Assembly (NCBI GenBank): GCA_018606645.1
Contig: JAGVRI010000016.1
Location: forward strand, 16,790-80,789
Reading direction: 5' to 3'
Length of the DNA stretch: 64,000 bases
DNA from: Chloroflexota bacterium
GTDB taxonomy: Bacteria; Chloroflexota; Anaerolineae; JAAYZQ01
Position 1 is the stretch's first letter; each line of letters begins with the position of its first letter. Positions 31,104-38,361 of this stretch are shown here, in pieces. The notes below the pieces were generated by a model. The model was not told where the DNA came from, did not search any database, and saw only the letters and a list, made by a program, of their open reading frames with translations. The position numbers were made by a program, and so were the translations under genes.

Positions 31104-34100
31104 TCGGCGGCCCTCCGCAGCAGATTCAGGATGGCATCTGCCCAGGGGACGACTTCTGTGACGCCGATTTTTAGCAGGGCTTTGTAGAGACGCGCGCGCA
31201 GGTCGCTTTCCTGCTGGCGGCTGGTCATCCAGTGGGGCAGGTCGGTAAAGGCGGCTTCCATATCCTGGGCAATCTGCCTCGCTTGCTGGGGGTCAATCTG
31301 ACGCCCGCGCAGCCACCATTCGACGGCAAAGGCCTGGGCTGCCTCGGGGCGATTTGTCAAGTCGCCCCTACTCCGGCGTTCCTCGTCGGCCTCCTTCAAT
31401 TGCTGCACCAGCGCATCCAATTCCTGTAGCGCCTGCTGCGCCTCGATTTGTCGCTCCTCGAAACGGCGGCGAATCTCCTCGGCGCGCTCGCCGATGGAGA
31501 GCAGGTAAGGCGCGGCGCGTCCCTGCTCCTCGACCAGACGATGCAATTCCTTGAGCAGGTTAAAGACCTTGACCGTGTCGGGCTTCTCGTCTTTGATAAG
31601 CGCCAGCAGCGCGGCCGGTCCGAGTTCGTAGGTTGCCTGCGGATCTCTGATGGCGCTGGTGCGGCTATGCTGTTGGACGATTTCGGCGGTCTTGCGCAGG
31701 AAAGACTTGTCCACCGGCACGTGCGGCTCGTAGGCAGCGCGCACGAGCCGATAGATATCGACCAGCCGCTGATAATCGTTCAGGAAAGGGCGCAGAAATG
31801 GATCAGGGGAGAGGATTTCGTAGAGTTCCTGCAGTTCACGGAAGAAGCGGTAGAAGGCCTCGCGCAGCTCTTTGTCACGGAAGCGCAAAAGCTCCGCCTC
31901 GGCCAGTTTGTCGTTTTGGGTCACCGCAGGGGGCGCAGAGAAATTTATCTCTGCGCTCTCTGCGTACTCCGCGGTGAGATACTCGGTTCGGCCCTGGGCC
32001 ATGAGGGTCTCAAAACGCGCTTGCAGGACCTCGATTCCCTCCACCACGCCGCTCACGTCCTGCGAATCGAAGGCAAGCGCCCGCTCCAGGTTCTCAAAGA
32101 CGCCGACAAAGTCCAGGATCAGGCCGGTGGTCTTGCGCTGACCTTCTTCGCTCTCGTAGGGGCGATTGACGCGGGCGATGGCTTGCAAGAGGACATGGTC
32201 GCGCATCGGTTTATCGAGATACATGCAGTACAGGATGGGCGCATCGTAGCCGGTCAGGAGCTTCTCGGTGACGATAAAAATCTGCGGGTTCTCGTCCGGC
32301 TTGCGGAAAGCCTTGCGCAGGCGGGTCTCTTCCTCTTCGCTCAAGTGATGGCGCTTGAGGTGGGGCGGGTCGTTGTACCCGGCGCTGATGACCACCGCGC
32401 TCCACTCGGTCGGCAGGTAGCGGTCGAGGGCTTCTTTATAAAAGGCGCAAGCTTCGCGGTCGGCGGCGACAAGGAAGGCTTTGTAGCCCATTGGCTGGAC
32501 GTATTGCTGGAAATGCTCTGCTACGAAGCGGGCGATCTGGTCCACCCGGTCATGGTTCTTGAGCATGTTGGTCAGGGTGACGGCGCGGTCGAGAACGCGG
32601 TTGATTTCCTCCACGTCGGCCACGCCTTCCAGCTCGGCGGCCGCCCAGAATTCCTGTTCCATCGCCTCGCGGTCGGCAATCAGATCATTGGGCGCCAGTT
32701 GATAGTGCAAGGGGACGGTGGTGCCGTCTTCGATGGACTCGCGGATGGAGTATTTATCGAAGTAGCCTTGCGGGTCAGCGCCGCCGAAGGTCTTGAAGGT
32801 GCCCGTGCCGTGGGCTGTCTTGTCAATGGGCGTGCCGGTAAAACCGATGAAGGTGGCGTTGGGCAGCGCGCCCATCAAATAGTTGCCCAGGTCGCCGCCG
32901 GTGGAGCGGTGGGCTTCGTCCACCAGCACAAAGACGTTGCGTCGCGTGCATAGATTCGCTGGCATGTCGTCAAACTTGTGGATCATGGAGACGATCAGAC
33001 CGCGCGCGTCACGGCGCAGTAGGTTGCGCAGTTCCTGTTTGGAGCGGGCCAGATGCACATGCCCAAAGCCCACCGCCTCGAGGTTTTGGAAAAGTTGCTG
33101 TTCCAGTTCGTTGCGGTCCACGATGAGCAGGACAGTAGGGTTCTGGAAGGCGGGCGTTTCGATGAGGCGGCGGGCGACGGTGAGCATGGTGTAGGTCTTG
33201 CCGGAGCCTTGCGTATGCCAGATCAGGCCGCGGCGGGGTTGGGACACGGCATGCCGTGCTCTTACAGCTTCTTGAGCGCGGGCCAGGACGCGCTCGGCGG
33301 CGCGCATCTGGTGCGGACGCAGGACGATTTTAGTGAGTTCGCCGTCTTTGCGGGCGAAGAGGATGTAATCGGTGAGGACGCGCAACACGCGGCGCGGGGC
33401 AAGGAACGATTTGACCAGCGTCTCGAAATCGGGCGCCTGGCTCTCCTCTTTCCAGTTAAAAAGCGTCTTGCGCGAAAGCGACCAGGTAGCGCCGTAGAAG
33501 AACTGCACCAGGTGGGTGAGGGCAAAGAGTTGCGCCTGCGCCATCAGGTCAGGGGCTTCTTGATGGTAGCGGCGAATCTGATCAAAGGCCTCGGCGATGC
33601 CCTCCAGGCGCGTGGCGGCTTTGGACTCGATGATGATGACCGGGATGCCGTTGACGAGCAAGACCACATCGGCGCGGATGCGCCGCGCGCCGCTCTGAAA
33701 CCAGAACTCGTCGGTGACGTGGAAGCGGTTGGCTTCGACCCGCTCCGGGTCGAGCAGCCGCAGGTCCCGCTCCCGGCGCTCGGTCTCGACAAAGACGGTC
33801 TTGAGCCCTTTGAGATATTCCCAGACTTCGCGGTTGCCTTCGATGTCGGCGCGGACGCTGAGCAGGCGACGGACGATCTCCTCGGCTTTGGCGGCCGTGG
33901 TCACCACGCCGGGGTTGAGGCGCTGCAGTAGGGGCGCAGTGCCACTGCGCCCATCACCGTTAATCAGCAACTGTTTCAAAATCGGGCATTCCTCGCCGCC
34001 GCGCAAGCGCAGGGCCTCGTCGGGCGGGAGGTATTCCCAACCGGCCTCGGTCGCATAGCAGATGAGCGGGTTTTGGACGGTGTGACGTTCGGAGGATATC

Positions 34101-36769: not shown

Positions 36770-38361
36770 GTCCCTGTCCCTCTATTCCTCAATCCTAGAG
36801 CGTCCAACACTTCATATAGAGCCTGCGCTGCTTCGGCGCGTTCTTCTTCGGCTTCCTCCAGGCGCACCAGCGCCTCCTCCAGCGGCAGGACGTCCTCCTG
36901 GCCGTTGGTGCTCACGTAGCGGCTGGGCGAGAGGTTGTAATCGTTGCGGGCGGCTTCGTCACGGGTGATAATGGCGTGTAGGGGCGCAGCGCGCTGCGCC
37001 CCTACGGGATCGCCCCACGCATGATAAATCTCGGCGATGGTTCCGATGTGGTCCTCCGCCAGGTAATTCTTGGGCCGACCTTTGGCAAATTGCTGACTGG
37101 CATTGATGAGCAGGATTTCGCCCGGATGACGTTTCTTGCGGTTGATGACGATGATGACGCCTGGCGCAGTGGTGTTGTAAAAGAGATTTTCGGGCAAGAG
37201 AATCACCGCCTCGATCAGGTCCGCCTCGACAAACGCTTTGCGGATATCGCGCTCGCGGTTACTGCCCTGGTTGCCGCTGCCGCGGCTGACGGCGCCGGTA
37301 TCCAGCACCACCGCCATGCGGCCGCGCTCGTTGAGCGAAGCGAGCATGTGTTGCAGCCAGCCCCAATCGGCAGAGGAAGAAGGCGGCGCGCCGTAGCGGA
37401 AACGCTCAAAGGGGTCGTTTTCGTAGAGTTCCTGCCCGAACTTTTGATTCCACATCGGGTTGGCGGTCACCAGGTCAAAGGTCCGCAAACGCCCGCCGGG
37501 ATCGCGGAAGGCGGGCTGGCGCATGGTGTCGCCGAGGCGGATGTCGGCCTCGATGTCGTGGATGACGGCGTTCATGCGCGCCATGGCAAAGGTGGCCGGG
37601 TTGATCTCCTGCCCAAAGACGCGCAGCGGGGCGATGGACGCGGGAAGGGCACGGCGTGCCGTGCCCTTACGCTGGCCGTACCGCTCCACCAGCCGCAAAT
37701 GGCACTTGATGAGCAGCCCGCCCGACCCACAGGCCGGGTCATAGACCGTCATGCCCGGCTCCGGCTCCAGCAGGCGCGCCATGAGGATGCCGACCTCGCG
37801 CGGGGTGTAGAACTCGCCGGCCGATTGGCCCTGCCCTTCGGCAAACTTGCGCAGCAGGTACTCGTAGGCGCGGCCCAGGATGTCCGGCTCCACATCGTCC
37901 AGCCCCAGGCGATGACGGGAAAGCACCTCGATCAGCGCCCGCAGGTGGTCATCGGAAATGATACGCTGACCGGCGGCGGTGGCGTTGAAATCCACCATGT
38001 CAATCACACCCGCCAGGCGCGGGTTCTCGCGCGCCACAGCGCGCACCGCATCGGTCAGATACTGACCCAGACCGACCGTCTGGCGGCGGATGGCTTCCCA
38101 TTTGGCGTCATCGGGGATGTAAAAGCGCACCAGCGAGACCACTCCGCGCATGCGTTCCTGTTCCAGCAGGGAACGGGCGGTCTTTTCACCGCCGAATTGG
38201 GCGCTCAGGCGCTCCAGTTCGTCATCGAATACATCCGACAGCCGCTTGAGAAAGACCAGCGGCAGGATGTAATCTTTGAACTTGGGCGCGTCAATGGGTC
38301 CGCGAATGGCGCAGGCGGCGTCCCATAACCACGTTTCGAGCTGGTTAAGATCAAGGCTCAT
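36766..38361 (-). CDS. hsdM: Type I R-M N6-adenine DNA methyltransferase subunit
   Basis: HsdM_N domain, motif I DPACGSGGLL, motif IV NPMW; ATG at 38361 after AAGGAGA. Confidence 0.9.
   Translation of the reverse strand: MSLDLNQLETWLWDAACAIRGPIDAPKFKDYILPLVFLKRLSDVFDDELERLSAQFGGEKTARSLLEQERMRGVVSLVRFYIPDDAKWEAIRRQTVGLGQYLTDAVRAVARENPRLAGVIDMVDFNATAAGQRIISDDHLRALIEVLSRHRLGLDDVEPDILGRAYEYLLRKFAEGQGQSAGEFYTPREVGILMARLLEPEPGMTVYDPACGSGGLLIKCHLRLVERYGQRKGTARRALPASIAPLRVFGQEINPATFAMARMNAVIHDIEADIRLGDTMRQPAFRDPGGRLRTFDLVTANPMWNQKFGQELYENDPFERFRYGAPPSSSADWGWLQHMLASLNERGRMAVVLDTGAVSRGSGNQGSNRERDIRKAFVEADLIEAVILLPENLFYNTTAPGVIIVINRKKRHPGEILLINASQQFAKGRPKNYLAEDHIGTIAEIYHAWGDPVGAQRAAPLHAIITRDEAARNDYNLSPSRYVSTNGQEDVLPLEEALVRLEEAEEERAEAAQALYEVLDALGLRNRGTGT
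36978..37005. repeat. REP-like palindrome inside hsdM 3' part (in frame), canonical copy
   Basis: GTAGGGGCGCAGCGCGCTGCGCCCCTAC (perfect 28-nt palindrome) encodes VGAQRAAPL. Confidence 0.75.
37643..37670. repeat. REP-like palindrome inside hsdM (in frame, second permissive frame)
   Basis: GGAAGGGCACGGCGTGCCGTGCCCTTAC encodes KGTARRALP. Confidence 0.6.

Follow-up and report, generated by a model that had tools for sequence, protein, structure and literature searches.

The 64,000-nucleotide stretch of Chloroflexota contig JAGVRI010000016.1 analysed here (hereafter the window) carries on its minus strand a seven-gene type I restriction-modification (R-M) operon, hsdM-MNT-HepT-hsdS-RAYT-hsdR-ygjP (38361-30798). 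In this operon, a gene for a REP-associated tyrosine transposase (RAYT) lies between hsdS and hsdR, and short palindromes of the repetitive extragenic palindrome (REP) type lie inside the coding sequences, one of them in the open reading frame (ORF) of the RAYT itself. Each gene junction is overlapping (ATGA, TGATG or 11 nt), leaving zero intergenic DNA across 7.6 kb. The genes are as follows:

36766..38361, minus strand: hsdM, type I R-M methyltransferase subunit, 531 aa (Pfam N6_Mtase, 1e-89, and HsdM_N)
36470..36769, minus strand: MNT-type nucleotidyltransferase, antitoxin-like (Pfam NTP_transf_2; PADLOC PDC-S09)
36133..36480, minus strand: HepT-like HEPN RNase (Pfam HepT-like, 2e-26)
34782..36143, minus strand: hsdS, specificity subunit with two target-recognition domains (Pfam Methylase_S; PADLOC Specificity_I, 1e-64)
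34102..34782, minus strand: RAYT-like Y1 HUH transposase gene, 226 aa (NCBIfam REP_Tyr_transpos; HUH and Tyr motifs)
31100..34105, minus strand: hsdR, restriction/translocase subunit, 1001 aa (Pfam HSDR_N, SWI2_SNF2, ResIII and T1R_D3-like)
30798..31103, minus strand: YgjP-like metallopeptidase gene, the last of the operon (Pfam YgjP-like, 6.5e-24)

HsdM, HsdS and HsdR were found at this one locus with their characteristic domains (Pfam, PADLOC), as in type I R-M systems, and their relatives in the PDB are 7vru, EcoR124I and 2w00. HsdM is 75-87% identical to homologs in several phyla. The R-M ORFs and their motifs (GSGKT, the DEAH-box-like VDEAH, and NPMW in HsdM) are intact. The MNT start overlaps the hsdM stop (ATGA), the HepT gene overlaps both MNT and hsdS by 11 nt, the RAYT start overlaps the hsdS stop (TGATG) and the RAYT stop overlaps the hsdR start (ATGA). 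The YgjP-like gene keeps the same position in the related operons L001, L003, L284, L286 and L287. Between hsdM and hsdS, the MNT/HepT genes form a toxin-antitoxin-like pair (PADLOC candidate system PDC-S09, window 36133-36769); the same slot holds an Mrr-like nuclease gene in L001 and a small ORF with an SLFN/AlbA_2 domain in L287. This slot collects accessory defence genes.

Pfam names every gene of the operon except the RAYT gene. The RAYT product matches NCBIfam NF047646 (REP_Tyr_transpos) in two stretches with an E-value of 1e-14, at 54.5 bits, below the curated family cut-off of 80, and Pfam Y1_Tnp weakly (16.6 against a cut-off of 23). The HUH motif (PNHIH, PNHIHG) and the Tyr motif WQRNYYEH are invariant in an alignment of 30 RAYT homologs. 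TnpA_REP (4er8) was the only match in a PDB profile search, a weak one (E 0.22) in which these motifs align to the HUH and WQPRFWEH motifs of 4er8. A homolog of 78% identity is named 'REP element-mobilizing transposase RayT' by JGI. REP copies lie inside the RAYT gene, and others stand within 174 nt of it. The RAYT clade is very large, with over 7,800 homologs obtained in an initial search. An exact-sequence look-up of the window RAYT gave no match, PADLOC and PHROGs contain no model matching it, and an AlphaFold model built from 30 close homologs was unusable (predicted local distance difference test score, pLDDT, 46).

Palindromes inside the genes of the operon

The window was searched for the pattern GTAGGGGC-N12-GCCCCTAC, allowing up to 3 mismatches, with 100 shuffles as control. 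Five matches were obtained versus 0.29 expected, and none of the 100 shuffles reached 5, which rules out a chance origin of the palindromes. Separate palindrome scans detected eight good GTAG-tagged copies at 33238-37670 and a decayed ninth at 31344-31370. All seven palindromes listed in an initial annotation, which had been made from the sequence alone, were recovered by these independent scans; the list had missed the hsdR copy at 33928-33955 and the decayed one. The nine copies of the operon are:

37643..37670: REP at hsdM site 2; it uses the second open frame, giving (R)KGTARRALP, with a net gain of 1 aa relative to the consensus GVxENGRL
36978..37005: canonical REP, GTAGGGGCGCAGCGCGCTGCGCCCCTAC, at hsdM site 1, read as VGAQRAAPL
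36089..36116: REP in the hsdS N-terminal extension, read as VAARHAVPL; a 30-nt gain relative to L001
35441..35468: REP in the hsdS central linker, read as VGAQRAVPL; linker of 25 aa versus a consensus of 23 aa
34469..34497: 29-nt REP inside the RAYT ORF, read as VGAQRRCAPS, 9 aa after the HUH motif
34142..34169: REP variant GCAGGGGCGAACAATCTTTCGCCCCTGC in the non-conserved 3' tail of the RAYT ORF, in the 'GT AGG GGC' frame
33928..33955: REP in the hsdR N-terminal domain, read as DGRSGTAPL; a clean 27-nt presence/absence difference
33238..33265: decayed REP in hsdR just before the GSGKT P-loop, read as VRARHAVSQ; +8 aa over RDPQK-RRG
31344..31370: degenerate REP of the 29-nt type in the hsdR C-terminal region, read as SRGDLTNRPE; +7 aa

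In size and stem-loop form the units are those of REPs, being 28-29 nt long with arms of 12-14 bp. The 5' end of each copy is GTAG or a one-base variant of it (GTAA, GCAG, GATG), mirrored by CTAC. As single-stranded DNA, seven of the eight good copies form hairpins with energies between -11.7 and -15.5 kcal/mol (z from -3.6 to -6.6); the hairpin of the 33238 copy has decayed (-4.4 kcal/mol). Rfam contains no family for these hairpins. Intact versions of the degenerate 31344-31370 copy are present in L003 and L287. The copy at 34142-34169, located 37 nt upstream of the hsdR start, is the counterpart of the 3'-flanking REP of a REPtron, that is, of a RAYT gene together with its REP hairpins.

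All nine operon copies lie within intact, open ORFs and are therefore intragenic, not extragenic. A perfect copy offers two open frames (VGA..PL and xRG..APT), the third being closed by TAG. The peptide translations given in the initial annotation were all correct. Its count of six of the seven copies in the GTA frame has to be lowered to five, since 37643-37670 and 34142-34169 use the 'GT AGG GGC' frame; among the eight good copies the GTA-codon frame is used by six, the decayed ninth being read in the other open one. Its statement that no copy breaks the frame is right in that all ORFs are open, but it is partly a selection effect, because frame 2 always contains TAG.

Palindrome-free homologs provided the consensus of the empty sites: W-xAxEGLSAI at HsdM site 1, GVxENGRL at HsdM site 2, VEQ-LQRL in the HsdR N-terminal domain, RDPQK-RRG before the HsdR P-loop and SS-PLSPQ in the HsdR C-terminal region. 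Because this empty-site consensus is short and different, the peptides encoded by the palindromes of the hsd genes are not ancestral, and the homolog alignment that the initial annotation had proposed as a check leads to rejection of that candidate explanation. Codon alignments revealed clean gains of 27 nt (hsdR DGRSGTAPL) and 30 nt (hsdS N-terminus). Clean insertions of 9-10 aa, as had been anticipated, are thus found at some sites (+9, +10 aa), while others show +1, +2 or no change in length. The hsd copies are polymorphic between operons, the same sites being filled, empty, decayed or length-neutral, and one orthologous site (for example, HsdM site 1) often holds different perfect palindromes in different operons. 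In hsdS, copies occur at the N-terminus, in the central linker and, in L003, L286 and L287, at the C-terminus.

The proposal that the insertions lie in loops agrees with an AlphaFold (AF2) model of HsdM (pLDDT 78). Both HsdM sites are modelled as low-confidence loops between secondary-structure elements, with a confidence of 69 at residues 231-240 (site 2) and below 50 at residues 452-457 (site 1, residues 452-461), and both align with gaps or variable stretches in solved PDB homologs. The stretch before the P-loop of EcoR124I HsdR is similar in length, which points to a naturally variable loop there.

At the hsdS N-terminus and at hsdR D-P-Q-G/Y (the slash marking the junction), the empty alleles (L001, window) have CTAC (GGC/TAC) exactly at the junction, and the filled alleles carry a palindrome ending in ...CCCCTAC. 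A CTAC/GTAG target exactly at the empty-site junction was seen at these 2 of about 6 comparable sites. This is suggestive of insertion next to a pre-existing GTAG/CTAC, without establishing it.

Confinement to RAYT-bearing operons

Palindrome densities were counted with a strict palindrome criterion. In the window, 7 copies were counted in the 7.3 kb of the operon versus 1 in the 56.7 kb outside it (binomial p 1.7e-6); depending on the scan, these 56.7 kb hold 1-2 copies. No palindromes are found in the 20 kb on either side of the operon. When nine RAYT-bearing loci were pooled, 26 copies were counted in 64.7 kb of operon sequence versus 1 in 125 kb of flank, a rate ratio of 50 (p 1e-11). Densities amount to 0.4-1 per kb in operons; in flanks they are about 0.01 per kb, for RAYT-bearing and RAYT-less loci alike. 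A genome-wide situation resembling that of the Rickettsia palindromic elements (RPEs), which the initial annotation had proposed, does not describe these data: in all loci examined the palindromes stop at the operon boundaries, tracking the embedded RAYT.

Outside the operon, a copy at 496-524 interrupts an intI-like gene, as had been annotated. The TAG of this copy ends the N-terminal SAM domain (window 200-745, minus strand; Pfam 3.8e-24). Integrase-like sequence resumes past the copy and then decays, so that the intI-like gene is read as a pseudogene. A related palindrome lies at 240-265, 230 nt beyond the 496-524 copy.

The arrangement of the operon recurs widely. For HsdM relatives, a scan with one genome per species yielded 80 loci. 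Those in which hsdR is directly preceded by a RAYT gene come from Caldilinea, KSB1, two Thermus species, several Anaerolineales and a metagenome-assembled genome (MAG) of Bacteroidia. The order hsdS-RAYT-hsdR is found in about 14 further loci from several phyla, comprising metagenome and MAG loci (L001/L002, L003, L125, L126, L130, L131, L135, L137, L142 and L162) and the named genomes of Chloroflexus aggregans (CP001337), Methylothermus subterraneus and Roseilinea (AP024676), these three being reached through close RAYT homologs. The metagenomic operons L001/L002 and L003 share the gene order of the window, with the RAYT gene between hsdS and hsdR, and each has about eight palindromes with none in the flanks. 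In Ardenticatena the RAYT gene adjoins a different restriction-like system.

The mean number of strict palindromes was 2.9 per RAYT-bearing operon versus 0.07 per RAYT-less operon. A tree of HsdR places the RAYT-bearing operons in what is essentially a single clade, which has a few RAYT-less operons within or beside it. Since shared ancestry weakens the comparison, it was repeated within this clade. The six RAYT-less operons in or next to the clade have 0-1 palindromes, and the contrast holds (p 0.008).

Two further features were noted in the C. aggregans locus (L284). A seven-REP array lies upstream of the operon at 448-1172, inside a called hypothetical ORF; six of its seven REPs are on a 111-nt register, with one 147-nt gap, and their consensus is GTAGGGGCACGGCGATGCCGTGCCCTCAC. 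In addition, hsdM of this locus is split into two ORFs (3340-3500) at an apparent tandem duplication of about 70 nt.

The palindrome inside the RAYT gene

The initial annotation treated the main copy in the RAYT gene (34469-34497) like the others, as a chance insertion that had survived. Comparison of RAYT homologs contradicts this. The peptide V-G-A-x-R-R-x-A-P-T is nearly invariant in 30 aligned homologs, and GAxRRxA is found in 90 of the 117 closest ones. In 86 of these 90, the variable residue pair is Q-C, T-V or R-R, precisely the combinations that the 29-nt palindrome GTAGGGGCG-xxx-CGN-CG...GCCCCTAC imposes. The two arms therefore covary while the inner stem changes, showing that the palindrome, not the peptide, is what the clade conserves. 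An ancestral conserved peptide was considered as an explanation and rejected, the covariation following DNA pairing rules.

The analysis was extended to a distant sample of 80 metagenome relatives with 40-70% identity. An internal GGGGC...GCCCC palindrome is present in 65 of the 80, with 50 distinct inner stems. The position relative to the catalytic motifs was checked in 88 RAYT genes, the 80 distant ones plus the eight from operons. Both motifs were detectable in 68 of the 88, with the palindrome located between them in 54; in 48 of these 54 it follows the HUH motif by 4-20 aa. The RAYT-internal copy is a near-universal hallmark of the clade and not a secondary insertion.

RAYT genes of this clade are flanked by cognate REPs. 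Flanking REPs match the RAYT-internal REP in 58 of 84 cases, compared with 11.3 ± 4.4 in permutations. REPs number 1.98 per kb up to a distance of 200 nt from these RAYT genes, versus 0.04 per kb beyond 3 kb. In the window, the arm of the internal copy recurs at 36978. We read the RAYT-internal palindrome as a putative cognate REP of the RAYT, carried in its own coding sequence. Of the distant RAYT loci, 38 have 3 kb or more of flank, and hsd genes are found in nine of these, some of them in other positions.

Other repeats were observed alongside these palindromes. An unrelated 40-nt hairpin repeat, read as YAESAEINFSAPPA, lies in frame in hsdR (window 31925-31964). The same hsdR site is also occupied by this type of repeat in L003, L126, L128 and L130, and longer versions (for example, AEDAESAEKRKVSSASSALSAV and TEHTGSTEKGSVDSVLSVV) occur at this site, at HsdM site 2 and in the HsdS linker of other operons; the carriers include L128, an operon without RAYT. 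Near-identical 31-nt quasi-palindromes, CCGG(G/A)GGAACCGCCTCCGCCGGTTCCACCGG, lie at 27890, 28133 and 28214 (window 27646-28244). The ORF around them, 26274-28784, encodes an 836-aa protein that carries a zinc ribbon at its N-terminus; the quasi-palindromes are probably due to a Gly-rich tandem repeat. Finally, a perfect 17-bp hairpin, CCCCTTCCCCTCTCCGC-CA-GCGGAGAGGGGAAGGGG, is located at window 42521-42556. Similar GGGGAAGGG...CCCTTCCCC hairpins are found in an unrelated RAYT locus (L236, 12139 and 15835), and together they may represent another repeat family.

Origin of the palindromes and relation to known systems

Taken together, we consider it probable that this locus is a REPtron, consisting of the RAYT gene and its GTAG-tagged REP hairpins, nested in a horizontally mobile type I R-M operon at a position between hsdS and hsdR, and that its palindromes were seeded locally and filtered by selection. 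REP copies would be generated or retained close to the RAYT gene. By analogy with TnpA_REP and the IS200/IS605 enzymes, which act on single-stranded hairpins, the RAYT may have produced the copies, acting preferentially nearby. Because the operon lacks intergenic DNA, a REP deposited near the RAYT gene must land in coding sequence. A copy that falls in the TAG frame, shifts the frame or hits a structured region would be lost together with the R-M gene that it inactivates; the TAG-frame copy at 496-524, which ends a pseudogene, fits such a filter. What survives would be copies that keep the frame and lie where indels are tolerated, in both loops of HsdM, at the N-terminus of HsdS and in the linker between its domains, and in several loops of HsdR. 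These copies would later decay or be trimmed. The RAYT-internal palindrome is different in kind: it is inherited with the gene, and its hairpin stays perfect although the inner stem varies.

A number of observations weigh against this nested-REPtron reading. The palindromes of the hsd genes match the internal palindrome of the resident RAYT in 10 of 33 cases, with no excess over the 8.3 ± 2.4 of permutations, and each R-M operon mixes palindrome subfamilies; after this permutation result, the claim that the present RAYT demonstrably made the hsd copies was dropped. Although RAYT-bearing, both Thermus loci and L137 score only 1 palindrome and L135 scores 0, and a separate scan identified the single copy of the Thermus operons as the one inside the RAYT gene; copies in hsd genes are almost absent there. 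Some sites are nearly length-neutral (HsdM site 2, +1 aa; the L001 HsdM C-terminal copy, +2 aa), and the palindrome in the HsdS linker of L001 and L287 leaves this linker at the 23 aa that nearly all homologs have. At length-neutral sites the 3' arm of the palindrome coincides with ancestral GTGCCCCT-like sequence (V-P-L). Such replacements are not predicted by simple cut-and-paste of a 28-nt unit. As the RAYT-bearing operons form about one clade, the association of RAYT and palindromes rests on few independent events. Palindrome counts for the source organism cover the 64-kb window only, and both the cleavage or binding of REPs by the RAYT and the function of the R-M enzyme are sequence-based predictions. 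In view of the subfamily mix, the scarcity in Thermus and the length-neutral replacements, local seeding by the RAYT is something that we infer.

Alternatively, REPs mobilised in trans in this host or in earlier ones may have bombarded whole genomes, hitting genes at random, so that the operon displays the in-frame survivors and the RAYT gene arrived likewise. The mixture of subfamilies within each operon, unmatched to the resident RAYT, would fit such a process, as would the C. aggregans array outside the operon. Moreover, the GTAGGGGC-N12-GCCCCTAC superfamily is widespread, 40-51% of 102 non-redundant IMG/VR contig copies lying deep in long ORFs, and intragenic GTAG REPs are reported from many unrelated genes of Opitutus terrae and other species (PMC3733652). 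Random bombardment is, however, hard to reconcile with the density of about 0.01 per kb in flanks versus 0.4-1 per kb in operons at all loci, with the palindrome-free 20 kb on either side of the window operon, and with the presence of none or one copy in operons of similar sequence that lack RAYT. The one intragenic copy per kb seen here is also far above the level usual for REP-rich genomes. We regard this explanation as unlikely.

Somewhat less likely still is templated conversion in place, whereby strand-switching, arm-to-arm correction or the annealing of REP single strands at partly similar sites would create palindromes from resident sequence, the RAYT being a passenger. The length-neutral or near-neutral alleles (an hsdS linker of 23 aa either way, hsdM site 2 with +1 and the L001 hsdM C-terminal copy with +2) are what this process would leave, particularly as their 3' arm coincides with ancestral GTGCCCCT or TGCCGCTG, and the different perfect palindromes found at one orthologous site are as arm-to-arm co-conversion would give. 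Yet all copies, at whatever site, share GTAG...CTAC-tagged GGGGC/GCCCC ends, other sites show clean gains of 27-30 nt, only the RAYT-bearing clade has the copies, and flanking copies of ordinary REPtrons agree with the RAYT-internal one.

A functional role of the hairpins and the RAYT in R-M is improbable, whether the hairpins were to adjust HsdR expression during establishment, as structures in mRNA or DNA, or to mark boundaries that the RAYT recognises for the exchange of HsdS target-recognition domains: the hsdS-RAYT-hsdR order with its overlapping stop and start codons is kept across several phyla, one hairpin precedes the hsdR start by 37 nt, hsdS copies bracket the target-recognition domains (N-terminus, linker and, in L003, L286 and L287, C-terminus) and 9 of the 38 distant RAYT loci with enough flank adjoin hsd genes, but the sites are polymorphic and their copies decaying, many functional-looking relatives have neither RAYT nor palindromes, HsdS tolerates indels nowhere but at these bracketing positions, and the RAYT corresponds to no defence-system component known to PADLOC.

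The nested-REPtron reading can be extended, although we consider the extension doubtful. A RAYT ORF that contains a heritable master REP would let enzyme and substrate travel together, and one branch of the clade would have become fixed as an R-M cistron. There the pair might remodel the operon, through exchange of REP-bracketed HsdS domains or control of HsdR expression, and might use R-M addiction to persist and to spread between phyla.

REPs of the GTAG type have been described inside the ORFs of known proteins, often DNA-processing enzymes, both at N-termini and internally and sometimes twice per gene (Di Nocera, De Gregorio & Rocco 2013, PMC3733652). The same authors take inactivating REP insertions as purged, note REPs that overlap the ends of RAYT genes, and place RPE-4 and RPE-6 in the CGTC class (PMC3733652). 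The palindromes studied here resemble those REPs in being short and GC-rich, in their terminal GTAG, in their association with RAYT and in their occurrence inside ORFs. They differ in reaching about 1 per kb in one operon while being absent from its flanks, in having the RAYT gene inside that operon, in the one copy kept at a conserved position of the RAYT ORF, and in their fully symmetrical stems of 12-14 bp (GTAG...CTAC).

By host range, the one character compared, the closest fit among known RAYTs is Group 4, which is common in Cyanobacteria, Chlorobia and Caldilineae and weakly associated with repeats (Bertels 2017, PMC5581495). As in REPtron and REPIN-RAYT systems (Nunvar 2010; Bertels & Rainey 2011; Ton-Hoang 2012; PMC5581495), a single RAYT with HUH and Tyr motifs is accompanied by close cognate REPs. 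Classical REPIN-RAYT systems are extragenic, vertically inherited, high-copy and genome-wide, whereas the RAYT gene described here is a cistron of a horizontally spreading R-M operon, its REPs are intragenic and local, and its ORF contains a REP. Among the RAYT papers that could be searched, none was found to describe a REP within a RAYT ORF or a RAYT serving as a type I R-M cistron, which is no proof of absence. The TnpA Y1 transposases of IS200/IS605 belong to the same HUH/Y1 enzyme class that recognises single-strand DNA hairpins, the match of the window RAYT to Pfam Y1_Tnp being weak. Unlike those elements, the RAYT gene lacks bounding left and right ends of the subterminal type, shows no sign of being present in multiple copies, and has hairpins that are short, symmetrical REPs.

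The Rickettsia element RPE-1 is roughly 100-150 bp long and spread genome-wide in a reduced genome, and it is not known to have a transposase. By description, as opposed to sequence comparison, the units of the operon are set apart from RPEs by their length of 28-29 nt, their GTAG tag, their link to RAYT and their restriction to one operon. Both are palindromic repeats lying in frame in genes that stay intact and presumably functional, their peptides occupying tolerated positions (Ogata et al. 2000, cited in PMC3733652). The initial annotation named RPEs, the classical in-frame precedent; they are not the only one, intragenic GTAG REPs having been published as well (PMC3733652).

A REP inside the RAYT gene bears on how RAYTs and REPs stay matched and on where new REP copies originate. 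Through the RAYT cistron, a 'domesticated' transposase is linked to a selfish defence module, in an operon whose transfers span Chloroflexota, Thermus, Gammaproteobacteria, Bacteroidota and KSB1. The series of filled, empty, decayed and length-neutral sites offers natural material on how 28-29-nt hairpins enter coding DNA, and informs how much loop insertion a multi-subunit enzyme tolerates. Set beside the known systems, in-frame intragenic REPs are not new in themselves; on our best reading, what is new is a REPtron nested in a mobile R-M operon without intergenic space, and a RAYT clade that keeps its cognate REP in its own gene.

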